Source of the DNA: a virus
Virus genome (UHGV): UHGV-2031204
Strand: one strand, 5' to 3'
Length of the DNA: 64,000 nt
Below the pieces are notes generated by a model. It saw only the letters and a list, made by a program, of their open reading frames with translations, searched no databases and was not told the DNA's origin. Each line of letters opens with the position of its first letter. Positions within the stretch are counted from its first letter, which is position 1. The position numbers were made by a program, and so were the translations under genes. Below are positions 25,736 to 63,362 of this stretch, piece after piece.

Positions 25736-25879
25736 ATGATTTCTGTAAAACACAAAAAAGCTATCTTCGCTGTTGTTATCGCTGTTGTTCTGGGTTGCCT
25801 GTATCTGGACATCGACAAAGGCTACGACACTTGCATCGACAACGGTAATTCCGTTGCACAGTGCACTGGTCGTGGTTAA
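25736..25879 (+). CDS. small single-pass membrane protein (47 aa), strongly codon-optimised
   Basis: AGGAG RBS, ATG 25736; hydrophobic helix AIFAVVIAVVLGCLYL; sits between conserved promoter motif and terminator; shares LYLD..K.Y motif with 62281-62478. Confidence 0.5.
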   Translation: MISVKHKKAIFAVVIAVVLGCLYLDIDKGYDTCIDNGNSVAQCTGRG

Positions 25880-43901: not shown

Positions 43902-44545
43902 TGTTGATACCCGAGCCGAGACTTCCAGATAAGATGGTAAGAATCGCGGCAATAGACCCCGGTACGAGCCATCTTGGTATGGCTGTATTGGATTGGGAAT
44001 ACGGCAGCGATCAAGCCGAAGTGGTTTGGGCTGATACCATGCATGTATTAGACCCAACGCATCCAAATGCGTTTGCAGAGTGTGTCGGTAAGCGTGACGA
44101 TCGTTTAGTTAAGCTCGAAGCTTGTTACCGTGAATTTCTTCGGATTGCCTGCCCAACTTTCGTTGCAACAGAGACACCGTTTATGCGGAGAGCAAAACTC
44201 TCCGCTTATGAATCTGGTGTCGAACTACAATTAATGTTGCGACGTACTTTGTGGGACGTTTACCCGGAGAAAATTTTACACGGCTTCAATCCTATCATTG
44301 TAAAATCATTCGTTGGGGTGGAAGCGAAGGGGACGGATAAAACCGATATGTTTCGGGCCGTGACCAAGCTCTATCGTGAACATGCTTTGTTTGATATTAC
44401 GACGTTAGATGAGCACAGTATTGATGCTGTGGCGGTGGGAAATATTTTCGTCAGGGTAAATCTGTTAAACTTAAACAGCCTGCTACCGCCTAAACAAAAG
44501 TCGACTAAGACCTCCAGGCGGAGAAGGCGTCGGAGAAAACGATAA
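43901..44545 (+). CDS. RuvC-like Holliday junction resolvase with poly-Arg C-terminal tail
   Basis: VRIAAIDPGTSHLGMAV (RuvC IDPG motif), FVATETPFM (catalytic Glu), DEHSIDAVAVG (C-terminal acidic pair); tail SRRRRRRRKR. Confidence 0.55.
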   Translation: MLIPEPRLPDKMVRIAAIDPGTSHLGMAVLDWEYGSDQAEVVWADTMHVLDPTHPNAFAECVGKRDDRLVKLEACYREFLRIACPTFVATETPFMRRAKLSAYESGVELQLMLRRTLWDVYPEKILHGFNPIIVKSFVGVEAKGTDKTDMFRAVTKLYREHALFDITTLDEHSIDAVAVGNIFVRVNLLNLNSLLPPKQKSTKTSRRRRRRRKR

Positions 44546-45123
44546 TGGAACCGAGCACACAAGCACTACCCACTGAAATACTTGACTTATTGATCCAAGC
44601 TGGAAACAGAAAGTTAAGTAAAGAACAGTCTGAACAGTTAACGAAACTCTTGAAAGCGGCGTATGGGGATGACGTCGACGTTGACGTTACCCGTTCGGGA
44701 ACAAAGATTCTTTCCGACTTACGCCCGACGCTAATCGATAACTTAGGCAAACTGTCAGAACAATTCCATCAGCAGGCAACTGACGCTGTGGAATCTCTAG
44801 GGGATGAGATTAGCAAAGAAACCATGCTAACCTTATGGCCGAAATTATCTGCTCCCCAGAAGTTCATTATTGCCCTTCTGACGTTAGCGACGGTTGTTGT
44901 AACCGGTTTCCTGGGTTACGACACGCATCAACATTTTCCAGAAGACAGTTTAGATGTTCTGATTGTGACGTTGGTACCGTTCTTTGCGTTGGTTGTTTTT
45001 GCGACTTGGCCGATTAAAACGTTGGCTTATAAGTCTCTTGAGATAGCCACAAAAGTTGTTGAGAAGAAGCTTGAGAAATCAGGCCAGCTTAAGTCGAAGA
45101 CAGAAAGCCCGACAACGAAATAA
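44545..45123 (+). CDS. hypothetical membrane protein (two hydrophobic helices)
   Basis: Segments FIIALLTLATVVVTGFLGY and VLIVTLVPFFALVVFATWPI; followed by terminator. Confidence 0.55.
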   Translation: MEPSTQALPTEILDLLIQAGNRKLSKEQSEQLTKLLKAAYGDDVDVDVTRSGTKILSDLRPTLIDNLGKLSEQFHQQATDAVESLGDEISKETMLTLWPKLSAPQKFIIALLTLATVVVTGFLGYDTHQHFPEDSLDVLIVTLVPFFALVVFATWPIKTLAYKSLEIATKVVEKKLEKSGQLKSKTESPTTK

Positions 45124-46361: not shown

Positions 46362-46841
46362 ATGATTCGTGTCGAATATGAGACGCGGTGCTTGGAAGGC
46401 AATAAAGCAAAAGTGTTACGTTGCGTTGAAGTTATCCCCGCACACGAGGTTGATTTACGTACAGGTCGTGTTCGGGGAGTTCCTGTAACGATACTACAAC
46501 ATAATCCTTGTTCGCAATTTAAAGGGAAGGCAACTCCAGCAGTACGTTCTCGTCGTCGAGAGGACTTTTCTGATCTCCGCAAATCTTTTACACGGCACTA
46601 CCGACGCAGTAAATGGAAAGTGTTGGTATTAATTTTAGTGGATGATTTTATTAAAGACTTGGTTTGGGAGGAGGTGCTAAAAGAGCGCGGTTTTACACCC
46701 AAACCTTTCTCGTATCACTGGGAACGTTTCAAAAAGAAATATCGTGAAGCGCTATGGTTTTCGCCGAACACACGGAATATGATTCCGCGCTTAGAGTCGA
46801 TGCCATGGCTACGCGATCATCTTGATGAGGTAGACCGATGA
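46362..46841 (+). CDS. hypothetical basic protein
   Basis: 159 aa, R/K-rich; stop overlaps next start. Confidence 0.5.
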   Translation: MIRVEYETRCLEGNKAKVLRCVEVIPAHEVDLRTGRVRGVPVTILQHNPCSQFKGKATPAVRSRRREDFSDLRKSFTRHYRRSKWKVLVLILVDDFIKDLVWEEVLKERGFTPKPFSYHWERFKKKYREALWFSPNTRNMIPRLESMPWLRDHLDEVDR

Positions 46842-47230
46842 AACGAACTGTCATTACCCTATTTCTAACGTTACTTTCATTTTCCGCGTTCGCGGAATTT
46901 AAACCGCACGATATTAGTCGTTTTGAACCTACAGTGCCGGGCGATAAACCCGTCGTTTTTAAATCTACCGACCAGCCAGTTGTTGCAGTTCAAAACGATG
47001 AGTTCGCCACGGTAAATTACGGTAAAACCGAATTGTGCCCGGCAGGTGGCTACTATTTGGTAAACATCAAACGGCGTACATATCAGTTTGTTGATCCGGG
47101 TAGTTGTTCTGCCAGTGTAAAGGTAACGTTAGAAACTGTACCCTACGCAAATAAAAGTATTAATATCCAACGTTTAACTTTCTATGTTGGTGATGAGATC
47201 ACCGCACGGTACCCATTATACGGGTATTAG
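46838..47230 (+). CDS. hypothetical secreted protein (signal peptide)
   Basis: N-terminus MKRTVITLFLTLLSFSAFA with AFA-E cleavage-like site; two Cys. Confidence 0.55.
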   Translation: MKRTVITLFLTLLSFSAFAEFKPHDISRFEPTVPGDKPVVFKSTDQPVVAVQNDEFATVNYGKTELCPAGGYYLVNIKRRTYQFVDPGSCSASVKVTLETVPYANKSINIQRLTFYVGDEITARYPLYGY

Positions 47231-57765: not shown

Positions 57766-57802
57766 CCCTCTCTCCGTTTGGAGAGAGGGAGTATTTATTT
57801 TT
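57766..57802 (+). terminator. rho-independent terminator
   Basis: CCCTCTCTCC-GTTT-GGAGAGAGGG then T-rich run; identical stem at 58813-58836. Confidence 0.7.
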
Positions 57803-58812: not shown

Positions 58813-58852
58813 CCCTCTCTCCGTTTGGAGAGAGGGTACTTTTATTTTTATT
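58813..58852 (+). terminator. rho-independent terminator
   Basis: Identical hairpin CCCTCTCTCC-GTTT-GGAGAGAGGG then T-run. Confidence 0.7.
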
Positions 58853-61553: not shown

Positions 61554-62075
61554 GTGATAGCGCGACTTGCGAGTTGGTTTAAGCAACGTCGGGCAAAGGC
61601 GGTCGAATGGCCGCCTATTACGCACGATGAAAAGGTGATTGCTTTTCTGAATTATAACAAAGACTTGAAGAGATTGGGCGAAATAATGCACCTAAAGGAA
61701 ACCCAAGTCTTTGCTAAGATTTCAAGTAGTGCTTTACGTAAACAGGTAATTCCCCACCTATCCTTTTCAGGGCAGGTTTATGCAATAACCGCAGAGAAAT
61801 TTTTATCGATGGCGGGCAATGAAACCCCACACATACGGTTCTCGGTTACAGATTCATCTGATGCGGTCGGTACCGTTGATTTCGGACGATTCTATCGATG
61901 CATTAAAGACGTGGGCCATATACATGTTAAACGGGTATCAGAAACTTCTGTAGTGATTTATCACCGTACTGAGAATGATTTGTTAGGGCGTGTTATAACG
62001 TTAACAAATTTACATAGTTTTTACGTTGATTTACTCACTGAGTTTTATCCAGAACCATGGTGTTTTATACGATGA
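61554..62075 (+). CDS. hypothetical protein
   Basis: GTG start 61554 immediately after upstream stop. Confidence 0.5.
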   Translation: MIARLASWFKQRRAKAVEWPPITHDEKVIAFLNYNKDLKRLGEIMHLKETQVFAKISSSALRKQVIPHLSFSGQVYAITAEKFLSMAGNETPHIRFSVTDSSDAVGTVDFGRFYRCIKDVGHIHVKRVSETSVVIYHRTENDLLGRVITLTNLHSFYVDLLTEFYPEPWCFIR

Positions 62076-62284
62076 ACAGAGCTAATGGATATATCATCTC
62101 GGCAATTGTTTCAACCGTGCTGATTGTGACGATGTTGATGTTTTATGTCCGAGTGTCAGATGACTCACGCAAAGAAAGTCTTTATCGTGAATGTATGTCG
62201 GGAACGTCCGTGGACAATCCGCGTTACAGCGAATTAGTAATAGCGTGCACAGAACATGCTAAGCTAATGGGAGATGGTCGATGA
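62072..62284 (+). CDS. small membrane protein with Cys pair
   Basis: ATG 62072 (ATGA overlap); hydrophobic IISAIVSTVLIVTMLMFYV; LYREC...C motif related to 62281-62478. Confidence 0.45.
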   Translation: MNRANGYIISAIVSTVLIVTMLMFYVRVSDDSRKESLYRECMSGTSVDNPRYSELVIACTEHAKLMGDGR

Positions 62285-62478
62285 AAATTTGGTTACCGAT
62301 TGTAGCTTTTATTCTTATCGCAGGGGCACTAGCAAGTGCCGAGTGTGACAATCGTGTTTTAGAAAAGAAAAGCGAATTGTATCTGGATTGCATAAAGGAT
62401 TACACGCCAGGTACAGAGCTTCATGCGCAGGCTGTAAAAAGTTGTGCGTTGATGGCTGAATCGCAGACCCGTTCCTAA
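62281..62478 (+). CDS. small secreted or membrane protein with Cys motif
   Basis: N-terminal MKIWLPIVAFILIAGALASA; LYLDCIKDY motif shared with 25736-25879 product. Confidence 0.5.
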   Translation: MKIWLPIVAFILIAGALASAECDNRVLEKKSELYLDCIKDYTPGTELHAQAVKSCALMAESQTRS

Positions 62479-62852
62479 TGCGTATCTGGACGTTACAACT
62501 CGCTAAGTGGCGGTTAGCTAAGCAGAAAGGATTTCACGCAGTGGATATCACTGTGAAGTCAGGGCGAAAGGAACTCGCCCCCGACTGGGATTTCCTAATG
62601 GCGTACAAAGCCTCTGCCCAGGACGCTGTCGCTGAACGTGAGTACACGATAAAGTATTTGTACAAACTCGAACGACTGTTAGATACCGATGCCGAAGTTT
62701 TAGTGTCATTACTCAGACACGAAGACTTGGTTTTGATGTGTTATTGTCCCGCAGGTAAGTTTTGTCATCGCCACCTACTGGCAAGTAAACTTCAAGAGGT
62801 GGGAATGATGTTCGGTTTTGACGTTGAGTTATGTGGAGAATTAATCGAATGA
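62478..62852 (+). CDS. DUF488-like protein
   Basis: C-terminal LVLMCYCPAGKFCHRHLLA matches the recalled DUF488 LLC...CHR..LA signature; N-terminal IWT...AVDIT..SG fits the family N-terminal block. Confidence 0.45.
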   Translation: MRIWTLQLAKWRLAKQKGFHAVDITVKSGRKELAPDWDFLMAYKASAQDAVAEREYTIKYLYKLERLLDTDAEVLVSLLRHEDLVLMCYCPAGKFCHRHLLASKLQEVGMMFGFDVELCGELIE

Positions 62853-63283
62853 AAGTAAAAGCAGAAATAACGGTGATACCTGAAAGACAAGATATTAAAG
62901 TTAAAGGGTTATTATTGACATTACCTCGTTCAGATTTCTACGATCCTGAAAACCCCGCCGCAGCGTTTGCACGCCTACTAAGATATCACATGAGCGTTTG
63001 TGAGGCTATTAAAGATCCTACAAAATTCAATTCTGACTTTCCAAAAACTGTCAGAATTGAATTTTCTGGTGGTCATCTTACTGACATTATGGTGACAGCG
63101 GACGATAATAATGTTGAAGTTTATGGTGAGTTTTGTCCGGGTGGTGTGTACGGTGACGATGTTCGAAACTTTATTATTGAACATGGTTACGTAGATCTAA
63201 AACCACGCATAGTGTATCGCAACGATAAAATTTTAGAAATCCGATTCTTTGATATCAATCTAGCAAAGTCTGTTAAAGTGTAG
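62849..63283 (+). CDS. hypothetical protein
   Basis: ATG 62849 (ATGA overlap); terminator follows. Confidence 0.5.
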   Translation: MKVKAEITVIPERQDIKVKGLLLTLPRSDFYDPENPAAAFARLLRYHMSVCEAIKDPTKFNSDFPKTVRIEFSGGHLTDIMVTADDNNVEVYGEFCPGGVYGDDVRNFIIEHGYVDLKPRIVYRNDKILEIRFFDINLAKSVKV

Positions 63284-63317
63284 TAACTACTTCGATTTTT
63301 AGCTGTAAAACGACTGT

Positions 63318-63362
63318 CTACCGCCCGATTCTATGGGCGGTAGGTGTTTTTATTTTTTTTTT
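63318..63362 (+). terminator. rho-independent terminator
   Basis: CTACCGCCC/GGGCGGTAG stem then 16 nt T-run. Confidence 0.7.

Follow-up and report, generated by a model that had tools for sequence, protein, structure and literature searches.

Small envelope proteins of phages govern superinfection exclusion, the time at which lysis occurs and the remodelling of the host envelope. In phage T4, superinfection exclusion involves Imm, a small inner-membrane protein, and Sp (Spackle), a small helical protein exported to the periplasm by a signal peptide. Almost no proteins of this kind have been identified for the SPN3US-like and phiKZ-like jumbo phages, except for the phiKZ lysis cassette (gp141-gp144) described in 2026, in which gp141/141.1 were tested by complementation of lambda Rz-am Rz1-am (PMC12894885). 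The present analysis concerns two adjacent small genes, ORF1 and ORF2, in a 64,000-nucleotide stretch of the virus genome UHGV-2031204 (hereafter the window). The window comes from an SPN3US-like jumbo phage; it aligns collinearly with Salmonella phage SPN3US and the related Seoulvirus phages (nucleotide identity about 70%) and, more remotely, with Erwinia jumbo phages.

The closest described proteins are encoded at the same locus of SPN3US, where two small exported proteins with a cysteine pair, gp116 and gp118, lie between the phrog_6965 gene and the gene for a DUF488 protein. gp116 (SPN3US_0116, YP_009153410; phrog_28359) has 69 amino acids (aa), a hydrophobic N-terminus and a C-x17-C arrangement. 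gp118 (SPN3US_0118, YP_009153412; phrog_10627) has 110 aa, a signal peptide (...VAHA-A) and C-x21-C. Between the two lies gp117, a diverged paralogue of the prohead protease (Ali et al. 2017, PMC5694885). Other members of phrog_10627 include Asesino gp134, Stratton gp138, CR5 gp125 and gp126, and KoPa-4 gp95, all of which are annotated, like gp118, as "hypothetical protein". The literature yielded no role or functional data for gp116 or gp118.

ORF1 and ORF2 represent new, uncatalogued families of small proteins, probably divergent members of this uncharacterised family of exported cysteine-pair proteins from SPN3US-related jumbo phages. The best explanation for the data as a whole, to which we give a probability of about 55%, is that the two coupled genes encode exported copies of a cysteine-pair domain that would sit at the face of the inner membrane. 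The relevant features are:

62072-62284, + strand: ORF1, 70 aa, from the open reading frame listing and the sequence; predicted single-pass inner-membrane protein
62090-62149, + strand: hydrophobic anchor of ORF1, residues 7-26 (YIISAIVSTVLIVTMLMFYV), mean Kyte-Doolittle hydropathy 2.45
62192-62248, + strand: C-x17-C loop of ORF1, from Cys41 (62192-62194) to Cys59 (62246-62248), codons checked
62281-62478, + strand: ORF2, 65 aa, from the open reading frame listing; predicted precursor of a secreted periplasmic protein
62281-62340, + strand: predicted signal peptide of ORF2, residues 1-20 (MKIWLPIVAFILIAGALASA), with overlapping A-L-A and A-S-A signal peptidase I sites
62341-62475, + strand: predicted mature domain of ORF2, 45 residues, nearly invariant from Cys37 (62389-62391) to Cys55 (62443-62445)

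Two overlapping genes under purifying selection

A preliminary description made from the sequence had placed the pair at 62072-62478, and both frames were found there. Conserved length, invariant cysteines and the ratio of nonsynonymous to synonymous substitution rates (dN/dS) across 13 related loci (12 fetched contigs and the RefSeq record NZ_CP173450.1) establish that ORF1 and ORF2 are real genes under purifying selection. Homologues form 33 clusters for ORF1 (70-93% identity) and 52 for ORF2, the identity across both ORFs ranging from 70 to 97%; 33 sequences were aligned for each family. Pairwise Nei-Gojobori dN/dS values are 0.06-0.31 for ORF1 and 0-0.27 for ORF2, with dS often above 1, and are comparable to those of the adjacent DUF488 gene. 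A 75-aa reading of ORF1 from a start at 62057 was excluded, most relatives having an in-frame TAG just 5' of the 62072-type ATG.

The genes are tightly packed. ORF1 overlaps the upstream gene by an ATGA, ORF1 and ORF2 share a second ATGA at 62281-62284, and the junction between ORF2 and the DUF488 gene is a TAATG, a 1-nucleotide overlap. These junction types are identical in all 13 loci, and they bear out the translational coupling of ORF1, ORF2 and the DUF488 gene proposed initially. The overlaps themselves had been described as ATGA, which is accurate for the first two and has to be amended to TAATG for the third.

ORF1 was left unannotated by the PGAP pipeline in NZ_CP173450.1, although its frame is intact there, and two gene-callings of related contigs pass over it; neither ORF matches a database family. 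One might thus suspect that one or both are chance reading frames in a dense genome. This is scarcely credible, however, given dN/dS values of 0.05-0.3 at saturated synonymous sites, frames unbroken in each of the 13 loci, conserved start/stop overlaps and the presence of Shine-Dalgarno-like GGTGG/GGAGG motifs in relatives. ORF1 is therefore a true gene that was overlooked when a related RefSeq record was annotated.

The close relatives (80-97% protein identity) are contigs of 220-230 kilobases (kb) from metagenomes and from isolate assemblies of Salmonella, E. coli and Shigella, the latter including P0005, P0008, P0022, P0030, P0038 and similar ones. NZ_CP173450.1 (L023; "plasmid" p98232-contig_4 of E. 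coli strain 98232) is a circular relative of 221,873 base-pairs (bp) within a complete RefSeq genome. Jumbo-phage relatives in isolate assemblies may represent phage in a carrier or pseudolysogenic state, or culture contamination. None of the close relatives is present in the deposited phage collection at >85% identity, and megablast found no near-identical counterpart of the locus among 50,697 deposited phage records. The segment 62072-62852 shows mosaic divergence: dS of ORF1 exceeds 1 to all relatives read, whereas that of the DUF488 gene is only 0.14-0.22 to three of them (L002, L012 and L013), a contrast which indicates that a recombination boundary lies within this cluster of small genes.

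Predicted export and probable kinship of the two products

By inspection, the N-terminus of ORF2 consists of an M-K n-region, a 15-residue h-region (IWLPIVAFILIAGAL) and the A-L-A/A-S-A sites, with a mean hydropathy of 2.0 over residues 1-20. The A-x-A site and the hydrophobicity are kept in 33 homologues, though only 5 of the 20 signal columns are invariant, and dN reaches 0.38-0.50 in this segment as against 0.07-0.13 in the mature part. From Cys37 to Cys55, 16 of 19 columns are invariant. A variable N-terminus with a kept A-x-A, set against a frozen Cys37-Cys55 stretch, argues for a cleaved Sec signal followed by a constrained mature domain. The pattern supports the prediction of Sec export and signal peptidase I cleavage for ORF2, which would leave a periplasmic domain of about 45 residues.

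The preliminary description had likened ORF2 to a signal-peptide protein, seen no lipobox and concluded that it is not a classical o-spanin, all of which holds. No [LVI][ASTVI][GAS]C lipobox occurs in ORF2 (...ALASA-E-C22); Glu21 separates A-S-A from Cys22, and in most homologues Cys22 is Tyr, Ser, Leu or Asn. Absence of a lipobox and lack of conservation of Cys22 led us to reject the idea that ORF2 is a lipoprotein or an o-spanin. Processing at an A-x-E motif by the prohead protease was also rejected, as the homologues have not kept this motif.

In ORF1 the strongly hydrophobic segment spans residues 7-26 and is the most conserved part of the protein (14 of 20 columns invariant); it contains Ser/Thr. 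F-Y-V directly precedes Arg27, and no A-x-A type cleavage site can be read from the sequence. Because a small-residue cleavage site is missing, the segment is likely to stay uncleaved, which supports the prediction of ORF1 as a protein anchored in the membrane through its N-terminus. Both products thus carry the N-terminal hydrophobic segment ascribed to them, and envelope targeting is supported by the signal pattern and faster-evolving N-terminus of ORF2 and by the 20-residue segment of ORF1. By analogy with ORF2 and with lipoprotein relatives at the inner-membrane face (see below), ORF1 would be oriented N-in, C-out, its 44-residue C-terminal hairpin facing the periplasm.

The two products share the motif noticed at the outset, LYREC41...C59TEHA in ORF1 and LYLDC37...C55ALMA in ORF2. 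At the family level it reads L37-Y38-x-E40-C41...C59-x-x-x-A63 and L33-Y34-x-[DN]36-C37...C55-x-x-x-A59, respectively. All four cysteines are invariant in the 33 sequences of each family. Their spacing, first put at about 21 residues, is in fact 17 in both (C-x17-C), values of 21-23 being found only in the SPN3US and CR5 relatives. Lone conserved cysteine pairs are characteristic of periplasmic proteins in the oxidised state and not of cytoplasmic metal sites; the pair in these presumably exported domains would most simply form a disulfide made by DsbA.

AlphaFold2 models built on the family alignments share one architecture, in which a long helix runs from the hydrophobic segment to the first cysteine and is followed by a loop of 7-9 residues and a second helix (helices 3-42 and 52-67 in ORF1, 4-38 and 46-64 in ORF2; predicted local distance difference test scores 72 and 85). 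In both, the first cysteine ends helix 1 and the second lies 7-9 residues into helix 2. Direct comparison of ORF1 and ORF2 shows a weak resemblance, with a BLASTP E of 0.012, a shuffle p of 0.008 for the BLOSUM local score and a probability of p = 0.026 that the cysteine spacing be equal by chance; the two profiles align in hhalign at P = 1e-3. Each family profile was also run against 274 decoy ORFs, 45-140 aa in length, that were drawn from the window, from 59 kb of SPN3US and from two Erwinia phage loci. In both searches gp116 of SPN3US came first among the non-self matches, and the second was the other ORF of the pair. The claim that the pair is paralogous is thus favoured by the reciprocal decoy ranks, by the common model fold and by tandem pairs in other genera; with a profile-profile P of only about 1e-3 it falls short of proof. 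ORF1 and ORF2 are probably distant copies of one another.

The tandem pairs in question belong to phrog_10627. In Cronobacter phage CR5, gp125 and gp126 form an ATGA-overlapping pair of lipoproteins (L020, 5504-6078) directly after the anchor gene; Erwinia phage EarlPhillipIV, like CR5 a Derbicusvirus, has such a pair in gp126/gp127 (L021, 5315-5889). In either pair one member has C-x23-C and the other "...ERLYLAC..." with C-x21-C. CR5 gp125 and gp126 match phrog_10627 at E = 1e-31 and 1e-32 and the gp118 family with hhalign probabilities of 97% and 94%; that they are adjacent paralogues is beyond doubt. Pseudomonas phage KoPa-4 also has a lipoprotein member (gp95), while in Erskinevirus the gp118 homologue (gp134/gp138) is preceded by a 58-aa protein with two transmembrane (TM) segments. 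The enterobacterial lipoprotein members, those of CR5 and EarlPhillipIV, carry Asp at +2 (LAGC-DT, LTAC-DQ). According to the enterobacterial +2 sorting rule, lipoproteins with Asp at this position are not passed on to the outer membrane but stay on the periplasmic side of the inner one. The hairpin of ORF1, if anchored as a type II protein, would lie in that same compartment, as would the soluble copies, which suggests that the cysteine-pair domain may act there.

ORF1, ORF2, gp116 and the phrog_10627 genes are all found just downstream of the phrog_6965 anchor gene, in a block that ends at DUF488 or virion-structural genes. ORF1 and ORF2 conform to the phrog_10627 layout of an export signal, a helix, phi-x-[ED]-C, a variable loop and [ED]-x-[VI]-x-x-C-x-x-x-A, and they share the overlapping tandem arrangement with the CR5 and EarlPhillipIV genes. 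They differ from phrog_10627 members in cysteine spacing (17 versus 21-23) and in lacking a C-terminal extension of 20-45 residues. gp116 resembles them in length, N-terminal hydrophobic segment, C-x17-C and locus; unlike them it is parted from its neighbour gp118 by the protease paralogue gp117, and it forms a narrow family of its own. In hhalign, gp116 aligns with ORF1 at P = 4e-4 and with ORF2 at P = 2e-3 (probability only 14-35%). CR5 gp125 aligns with each at P = 1e-3, both cysteines of ORF2 being matched across a 6-residue gap, and an eight-sequence phrog_10627 alignment gives P = 0.0016 for ORF1 (probability 16%) and 0.013 for ORF2 (3%). These links to the phrog_10627 superfamily are weak, yet in every alignment the cysteines match and the extra residues fall into the loop that follows the first of them. 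Against 391 decoy ORFs the superfamily profile ranked gp116, ORF1 and ORF2 second, fourth and ninth, behind the true member gp118. A search for gp116-based intermediates between the families returned close relatives only. Taken together, synteny, architecture and the cysteine-pair motif tentatively tie three narrow orphan families to a broader one, and ORF1, ORF2 and gp116 probably belong to the phrog_10627 superfamily. The domain would then be one that is repeatedly kept as a tandem pair.

Wider searches produced little beyond the families themselves. tblastn of ORF1 and ORF2 against the 50,697 phage records returned only chance matches (E = 4), and an IMG/VR scan with the ORF2 alignment three close relatives. 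Exhaustive HMMER of the ORF2 profile over 1.84 billion representative proteins found its own family and P0086 only. P0086 (424 aa, low-complexity, Asn/Lys-rich repeats) was matched four times through "SPYEECIKSFSPST" at E = 6.5e-8, its repeat pattern Y-x-x-C-I-K-x-[FY]-[ST]-P occurring four times. It was rejected as a chance or compositional match, its cysteine arrangement being different and a signal peptide missing.

Several observations weigh against the reading as exported copies of one domain at the inner membrane. Neither protein has a significant functional match in Pfam, PHROGs, NCBIfam, PADLOC, PDB sequences or, by Foldseek, BFVD and PDB. The best library matches, a phrog_27425 "membrane protein" for ORF1 and AmcE for ORF2 (both E = 0.033), are not credible; among PDB sequences ORF2 met a TNFR9 fragment at E = 0.44 and ORF1 nothing. 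Foldseek of the ORF2 model (best E 0.49 in BFVD and 3.2 in PDB) returned generic helical hairpins (CnrX, DUF1311, CHMP4B), which are uninformative. The sole paper found that mentions gp118 does so in passing. In the PHROGs scan, neither ORF matches the hidden Markov models (HMMs) of phrog_10627 or phrog_28359 at E <= 1, bona fide phrog_10627 members scoring 1e-9 to 1e-32, and all hhalign links of the two ORFs to these families have probabilities of 35% or less. A tight antiparallel hairpin would offset Cys37 and Cys55 by about 8 residues, so that an intramolecular disulfide is not guaranteed and intermolecular bonds are possible. Lastly, raw ungapped identity between ORF1 and ORF2 gives a shuffle p of only 0.08, and a C-domain of ORF1 in the periplasm finds no support in the positive-inside rule, with one K/R in the N-tail and four in the 15-residue C-flank.

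The last two points, together with an hhalign probability of 20% for the pair, would also fit a different account, in which ORF1 and ORF2 are unrelated, the cysteine domain of ORF1 is cytoplasmic (N-out, C-in), the LYx(E/D)C...C motif is coincidental and only ORF2 is periplasmic. Arg or Lys27 directly after the ORF1 anchor, the same charge pattern in gp116 and the failure of any HMM library to connect the two ORFs agree with it. Yet the C-flank contains four D/E as well, for a net charge of 0, and the equal spacing, the flanking motifs conserved in both families, the common AlphaFold2 architecture, the reciprocal top ranks among decoys, the general association of lone cysteine pairs with the oxidised periplasm and the unambiguous export of relatives at the same locus all run counter to it. 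We consider this account unlikely and retain that of two exported copies.

Possible roles at the inner membrane

If two exported copies are made, the pair could operate as follows. ORF1 and ORF2 would be co-transcribed and translationally coupled. Cleavage of ORF2 after A-L-A or A-S-A would release a soluble periplasmic helix-loop-helix of about 45 residues, while ORF1 would keep its hydrophobic segment as a membrane anchor and present its hairpin to the periplasm. In each protein DsbA may oxidise the C-x17-C pair, and the resulting bond would either staple the hairpin or link one subunit to another. The two would represent very divergent copies of the exported cysteine-pair domain found at this locus in related jumbo phages, delivered in interchangeable ways, through a TM anchor, through a lipid anchor with Asp+2 or through a signal that is cleaved off. 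The frozen Cys37-Cys55 loop hints at a conserved binding partner, and one might speculate that the anchored and soluble copies act jointly on it at the inner-membrane surface.

A small TM-protein gene followed by an overlapping gene for a small exported protein, with conserved cysteines in both products, is reminiscent of two-component spanins. In lambda Rz/Rz1 and phiKZ gp141/gp141.1 (PMC12894885, PMC6139136), an N-anchored inner-membrane protein and a small exported protein with conserved periplasmic cysteines are likewise specified by overlapping or adjacent genes. ORF1 as i-spanin and ORF2 as o-spanin would bridge both membranes and disrupt the outer one at lysis. The CR5 and EarlPhillipIV lipoproteins show sub-threshold matches to "Rz-like spanin" PHROGs (E = 0.02-0.04). 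Nevertheless, ORF2 has no outer-membrane anchor, Cys22 being the sole candidate and not conserved, and the lipoprotein relatives carry the Asp+2 of inner-membrane retention. The presumed periplasmic part of ORF1 amounts to 44 residues predicted to form a hairpin, as compared to a coiled coil of roughly 100 residues in spanins, and the pair could not span the periplasm. The locus also has no adjoining endolysin or holin gene. SPN3US-type phages do not appear in the spanin supplementary tables. We conclude that ORF1 and ORF2 are not spanins, any residual chance of that scheme being very small.

In SPN3US the endolysin gene stands alone 30 kb downstream of the locus, with no membrane genes annotated beside it, which indicates that ORF1 and ORF2 are not part of a lysis cassette. 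A role in lysis timing could still be envisaged, ORF1 being holin-like or modulating a holin and ORF2 serving as periplasmic antiholin or sensor, as in T4 T/RI. T4 T/RI and the phiKZ class III holin gp142 (PMC12894885) offer the precedent of a protein with a single TM domain and a small secreted or periplasmic partner that may bind its periplasmic domain, from genes unclustered with the endolysin gene. Lysis genes are scattered in large myoviruses, and phage phiKZ has, besides its single-TM class III holin, a possible lysis-inhibition phenotype (PMC12894885). No holin is annotated beside the SPN3US endolysin. The conservation of the ORF1 TM segment and its Ser/Thr would suit a helix making specific contacts. 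In Erskinevirus, Wellingtonvirus and Machinavirus the corresponding slot is filled by a holin-sized protein (58-77 aa) with two TM segments, and in the two Erskinevirus phages read this protein adjoins a secreted cysteine-pair protein. On the other side, although the single TM domain of ORF1 is compatible with such a role, hardly more than 6 of its residues would lie in the cytoplasm and it lacks a charged or regulatory domain there; the apparent homologues in CR5 and EarlPhillipIV are lipid-anchored without a TM segment and cannot form holes; and no endolysin or spanin is encoded nearby. Neither ORF matches a known holin or antiholin family in Pfam, PHROGs or NCBIfam, sequence and fold similarity to T and RI is lacking, and T and RI, unlike the proposed pair, are not mutual paralogues. 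A lysis-timing pair in the manner of T4 T/RI ranks second among the roles considered and would still be an unlikely one.

For the two exported copies, a module for superinfection exclusion or envelope protection is our tentative first choice, as a possibility well short of probable. It is favoured by the inner-membrane-face location, the anchored-plus-soluble tandem and the frozen loop. The analogy is with T4 Imm/Sp, also a small inner-membrane protein and a small exported envelope protein of a large virulent myovirus; the differences are that homology is not detectable (no PHROG or Pfam match) and that imm and sp are neither adjacent nor paralogues. Some other envelope role takes up the remainder. 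In a more daring version, which we regard as doubtful, ORF1 and ORF2 would make up a disulfide-stabilised hetero-oligomer on the periplasmic side of the inner membrane. It would be the first example of a new envelope module of jumbo phages, built from a tandem hairpin domain re-targeted among genera, and would block or sense the entry of superinfecting DNA and so lead to exclusion or lysis inhibition. To our knowledge, no exclusion or lysis-inhibition system of such kind has been described in nucleus-forming jumbo phages. The pair offers a concrete target for work on exclusion and lysis in these phages, its practical importance being modest until a phenotype is found.

Neighbouring genes and other features of the window

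ORF1 and ORF2 belong to a co-directional block bounded by two strong terminator-like hairpins and separate from the virion-structural genes downstream. Its other features are:

58813-58836, + strand: terminator-like hairpin at the upstream boundary of the block
61554-62075, + strand: upstream gene, 173 aa, overlapping ORF1 by ATGA; clade-restricted, with no predicted function
62478-62852, + strand: DUF488-N3a gene (Pfam PF22751, E = 8e-12), cytoplasmic-type product, overlapping ORF2 by TAATG
63315-63346, + strand: terminator-like hairpin with a 13-bp stem and a T-run, closing the block

The upstream gene occurs in all related loci. Its product matched neither Pfam nor PHROG families, gave no tblastn match in the 50,697 phage records and does not resemble gp131 of Asesino, which is encoded at the equivalent position. 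As to the DUF488 protein, a functional tie to ORF1 and ORF2 was rejected, their coupling being mere operon packing in a dense genome; it is probably unrelated to them in function. The hairpin at 58813-58836 is one of two identical, G+C-rich 24-nucleotide hairpins (CCCTCTCTCCGTTTGGAGAGAGGG), the other lying at 57766-57789 (+ strand), each followed by a T-rich tail. That at 63315-63346 is stronger. All three look like repeated intrinsic terminators delimiting transcription units.

The gene at 62849-63283 (+ strand) overlaps the DUF488 stop codon by ATGA and matches the phrog_7478 "head maturation protease" at E = 2.7e-5. It corresponds to gp117 of SPN3US, the protease paralogue introduced above (PMC5694885). 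Among the close relatives, L002-L004 and L012 have this gene, and L009-L011 and L013 lack it. A gp117-like gene adjoins a small membrane protein in every genus examined except Derbicusvirus, the stretches read of CR5 and EarlPhillipIV containing none. In Erwinia jumbo phages the adjoining proteins are of 58-77 aa with two TM segments, holin-sized but not so annotated: Asesino gp133 (L005, 2769-2945), Stratton gp137 (L006, 2757-2933), Kwan gp145 (L019, 5851-6054) and Caitlin gp130 (L022, 8626-8859).

A phrog_8825 protein of 330-370 aa with an N-terminal, PP-loop-like SxGxDS is encoded directly upstream of, and overlapping, the DUF488 gene in SPN3US (gp119; L001, 4828-5835), Asesino (L005, 3231-4346) and Stratton (L006, 3273-4385). 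The Kwan gene (L019, 6054-7040) has the same position, the DUF488 identity of the gene downstream of it not having been checked. The phrog_8825 gene is missing from the window and its close relatives, in which DUF488 directly follows ORF2.

Three further ORFs of the window encode proteins of envelope type. The one at 44545-45123 (+ strand) specifies 192 aa, of which roughly residues 101-161 contain two TM segments, and that at 46838-47230 (+ strand) 130 aa with a clear signal peptide (MKRTVITLFLTLLSFSAFA, followed by E). An isolated 47-aa ORF at 25736-25879 (+ strand; MISVKHKKAIFAVVIAVVLGCLYLDIDKGYDTCIDNGNSVAQCTGRG) combines a signal sequence, a lipobox-like V-L-G-C and two further cysteines; it has a 47-aa counterpart at the collinear position 65485-65628 of SPN3US and could be a tiny lipoprotein, o-spanin-like or of another envelope type.

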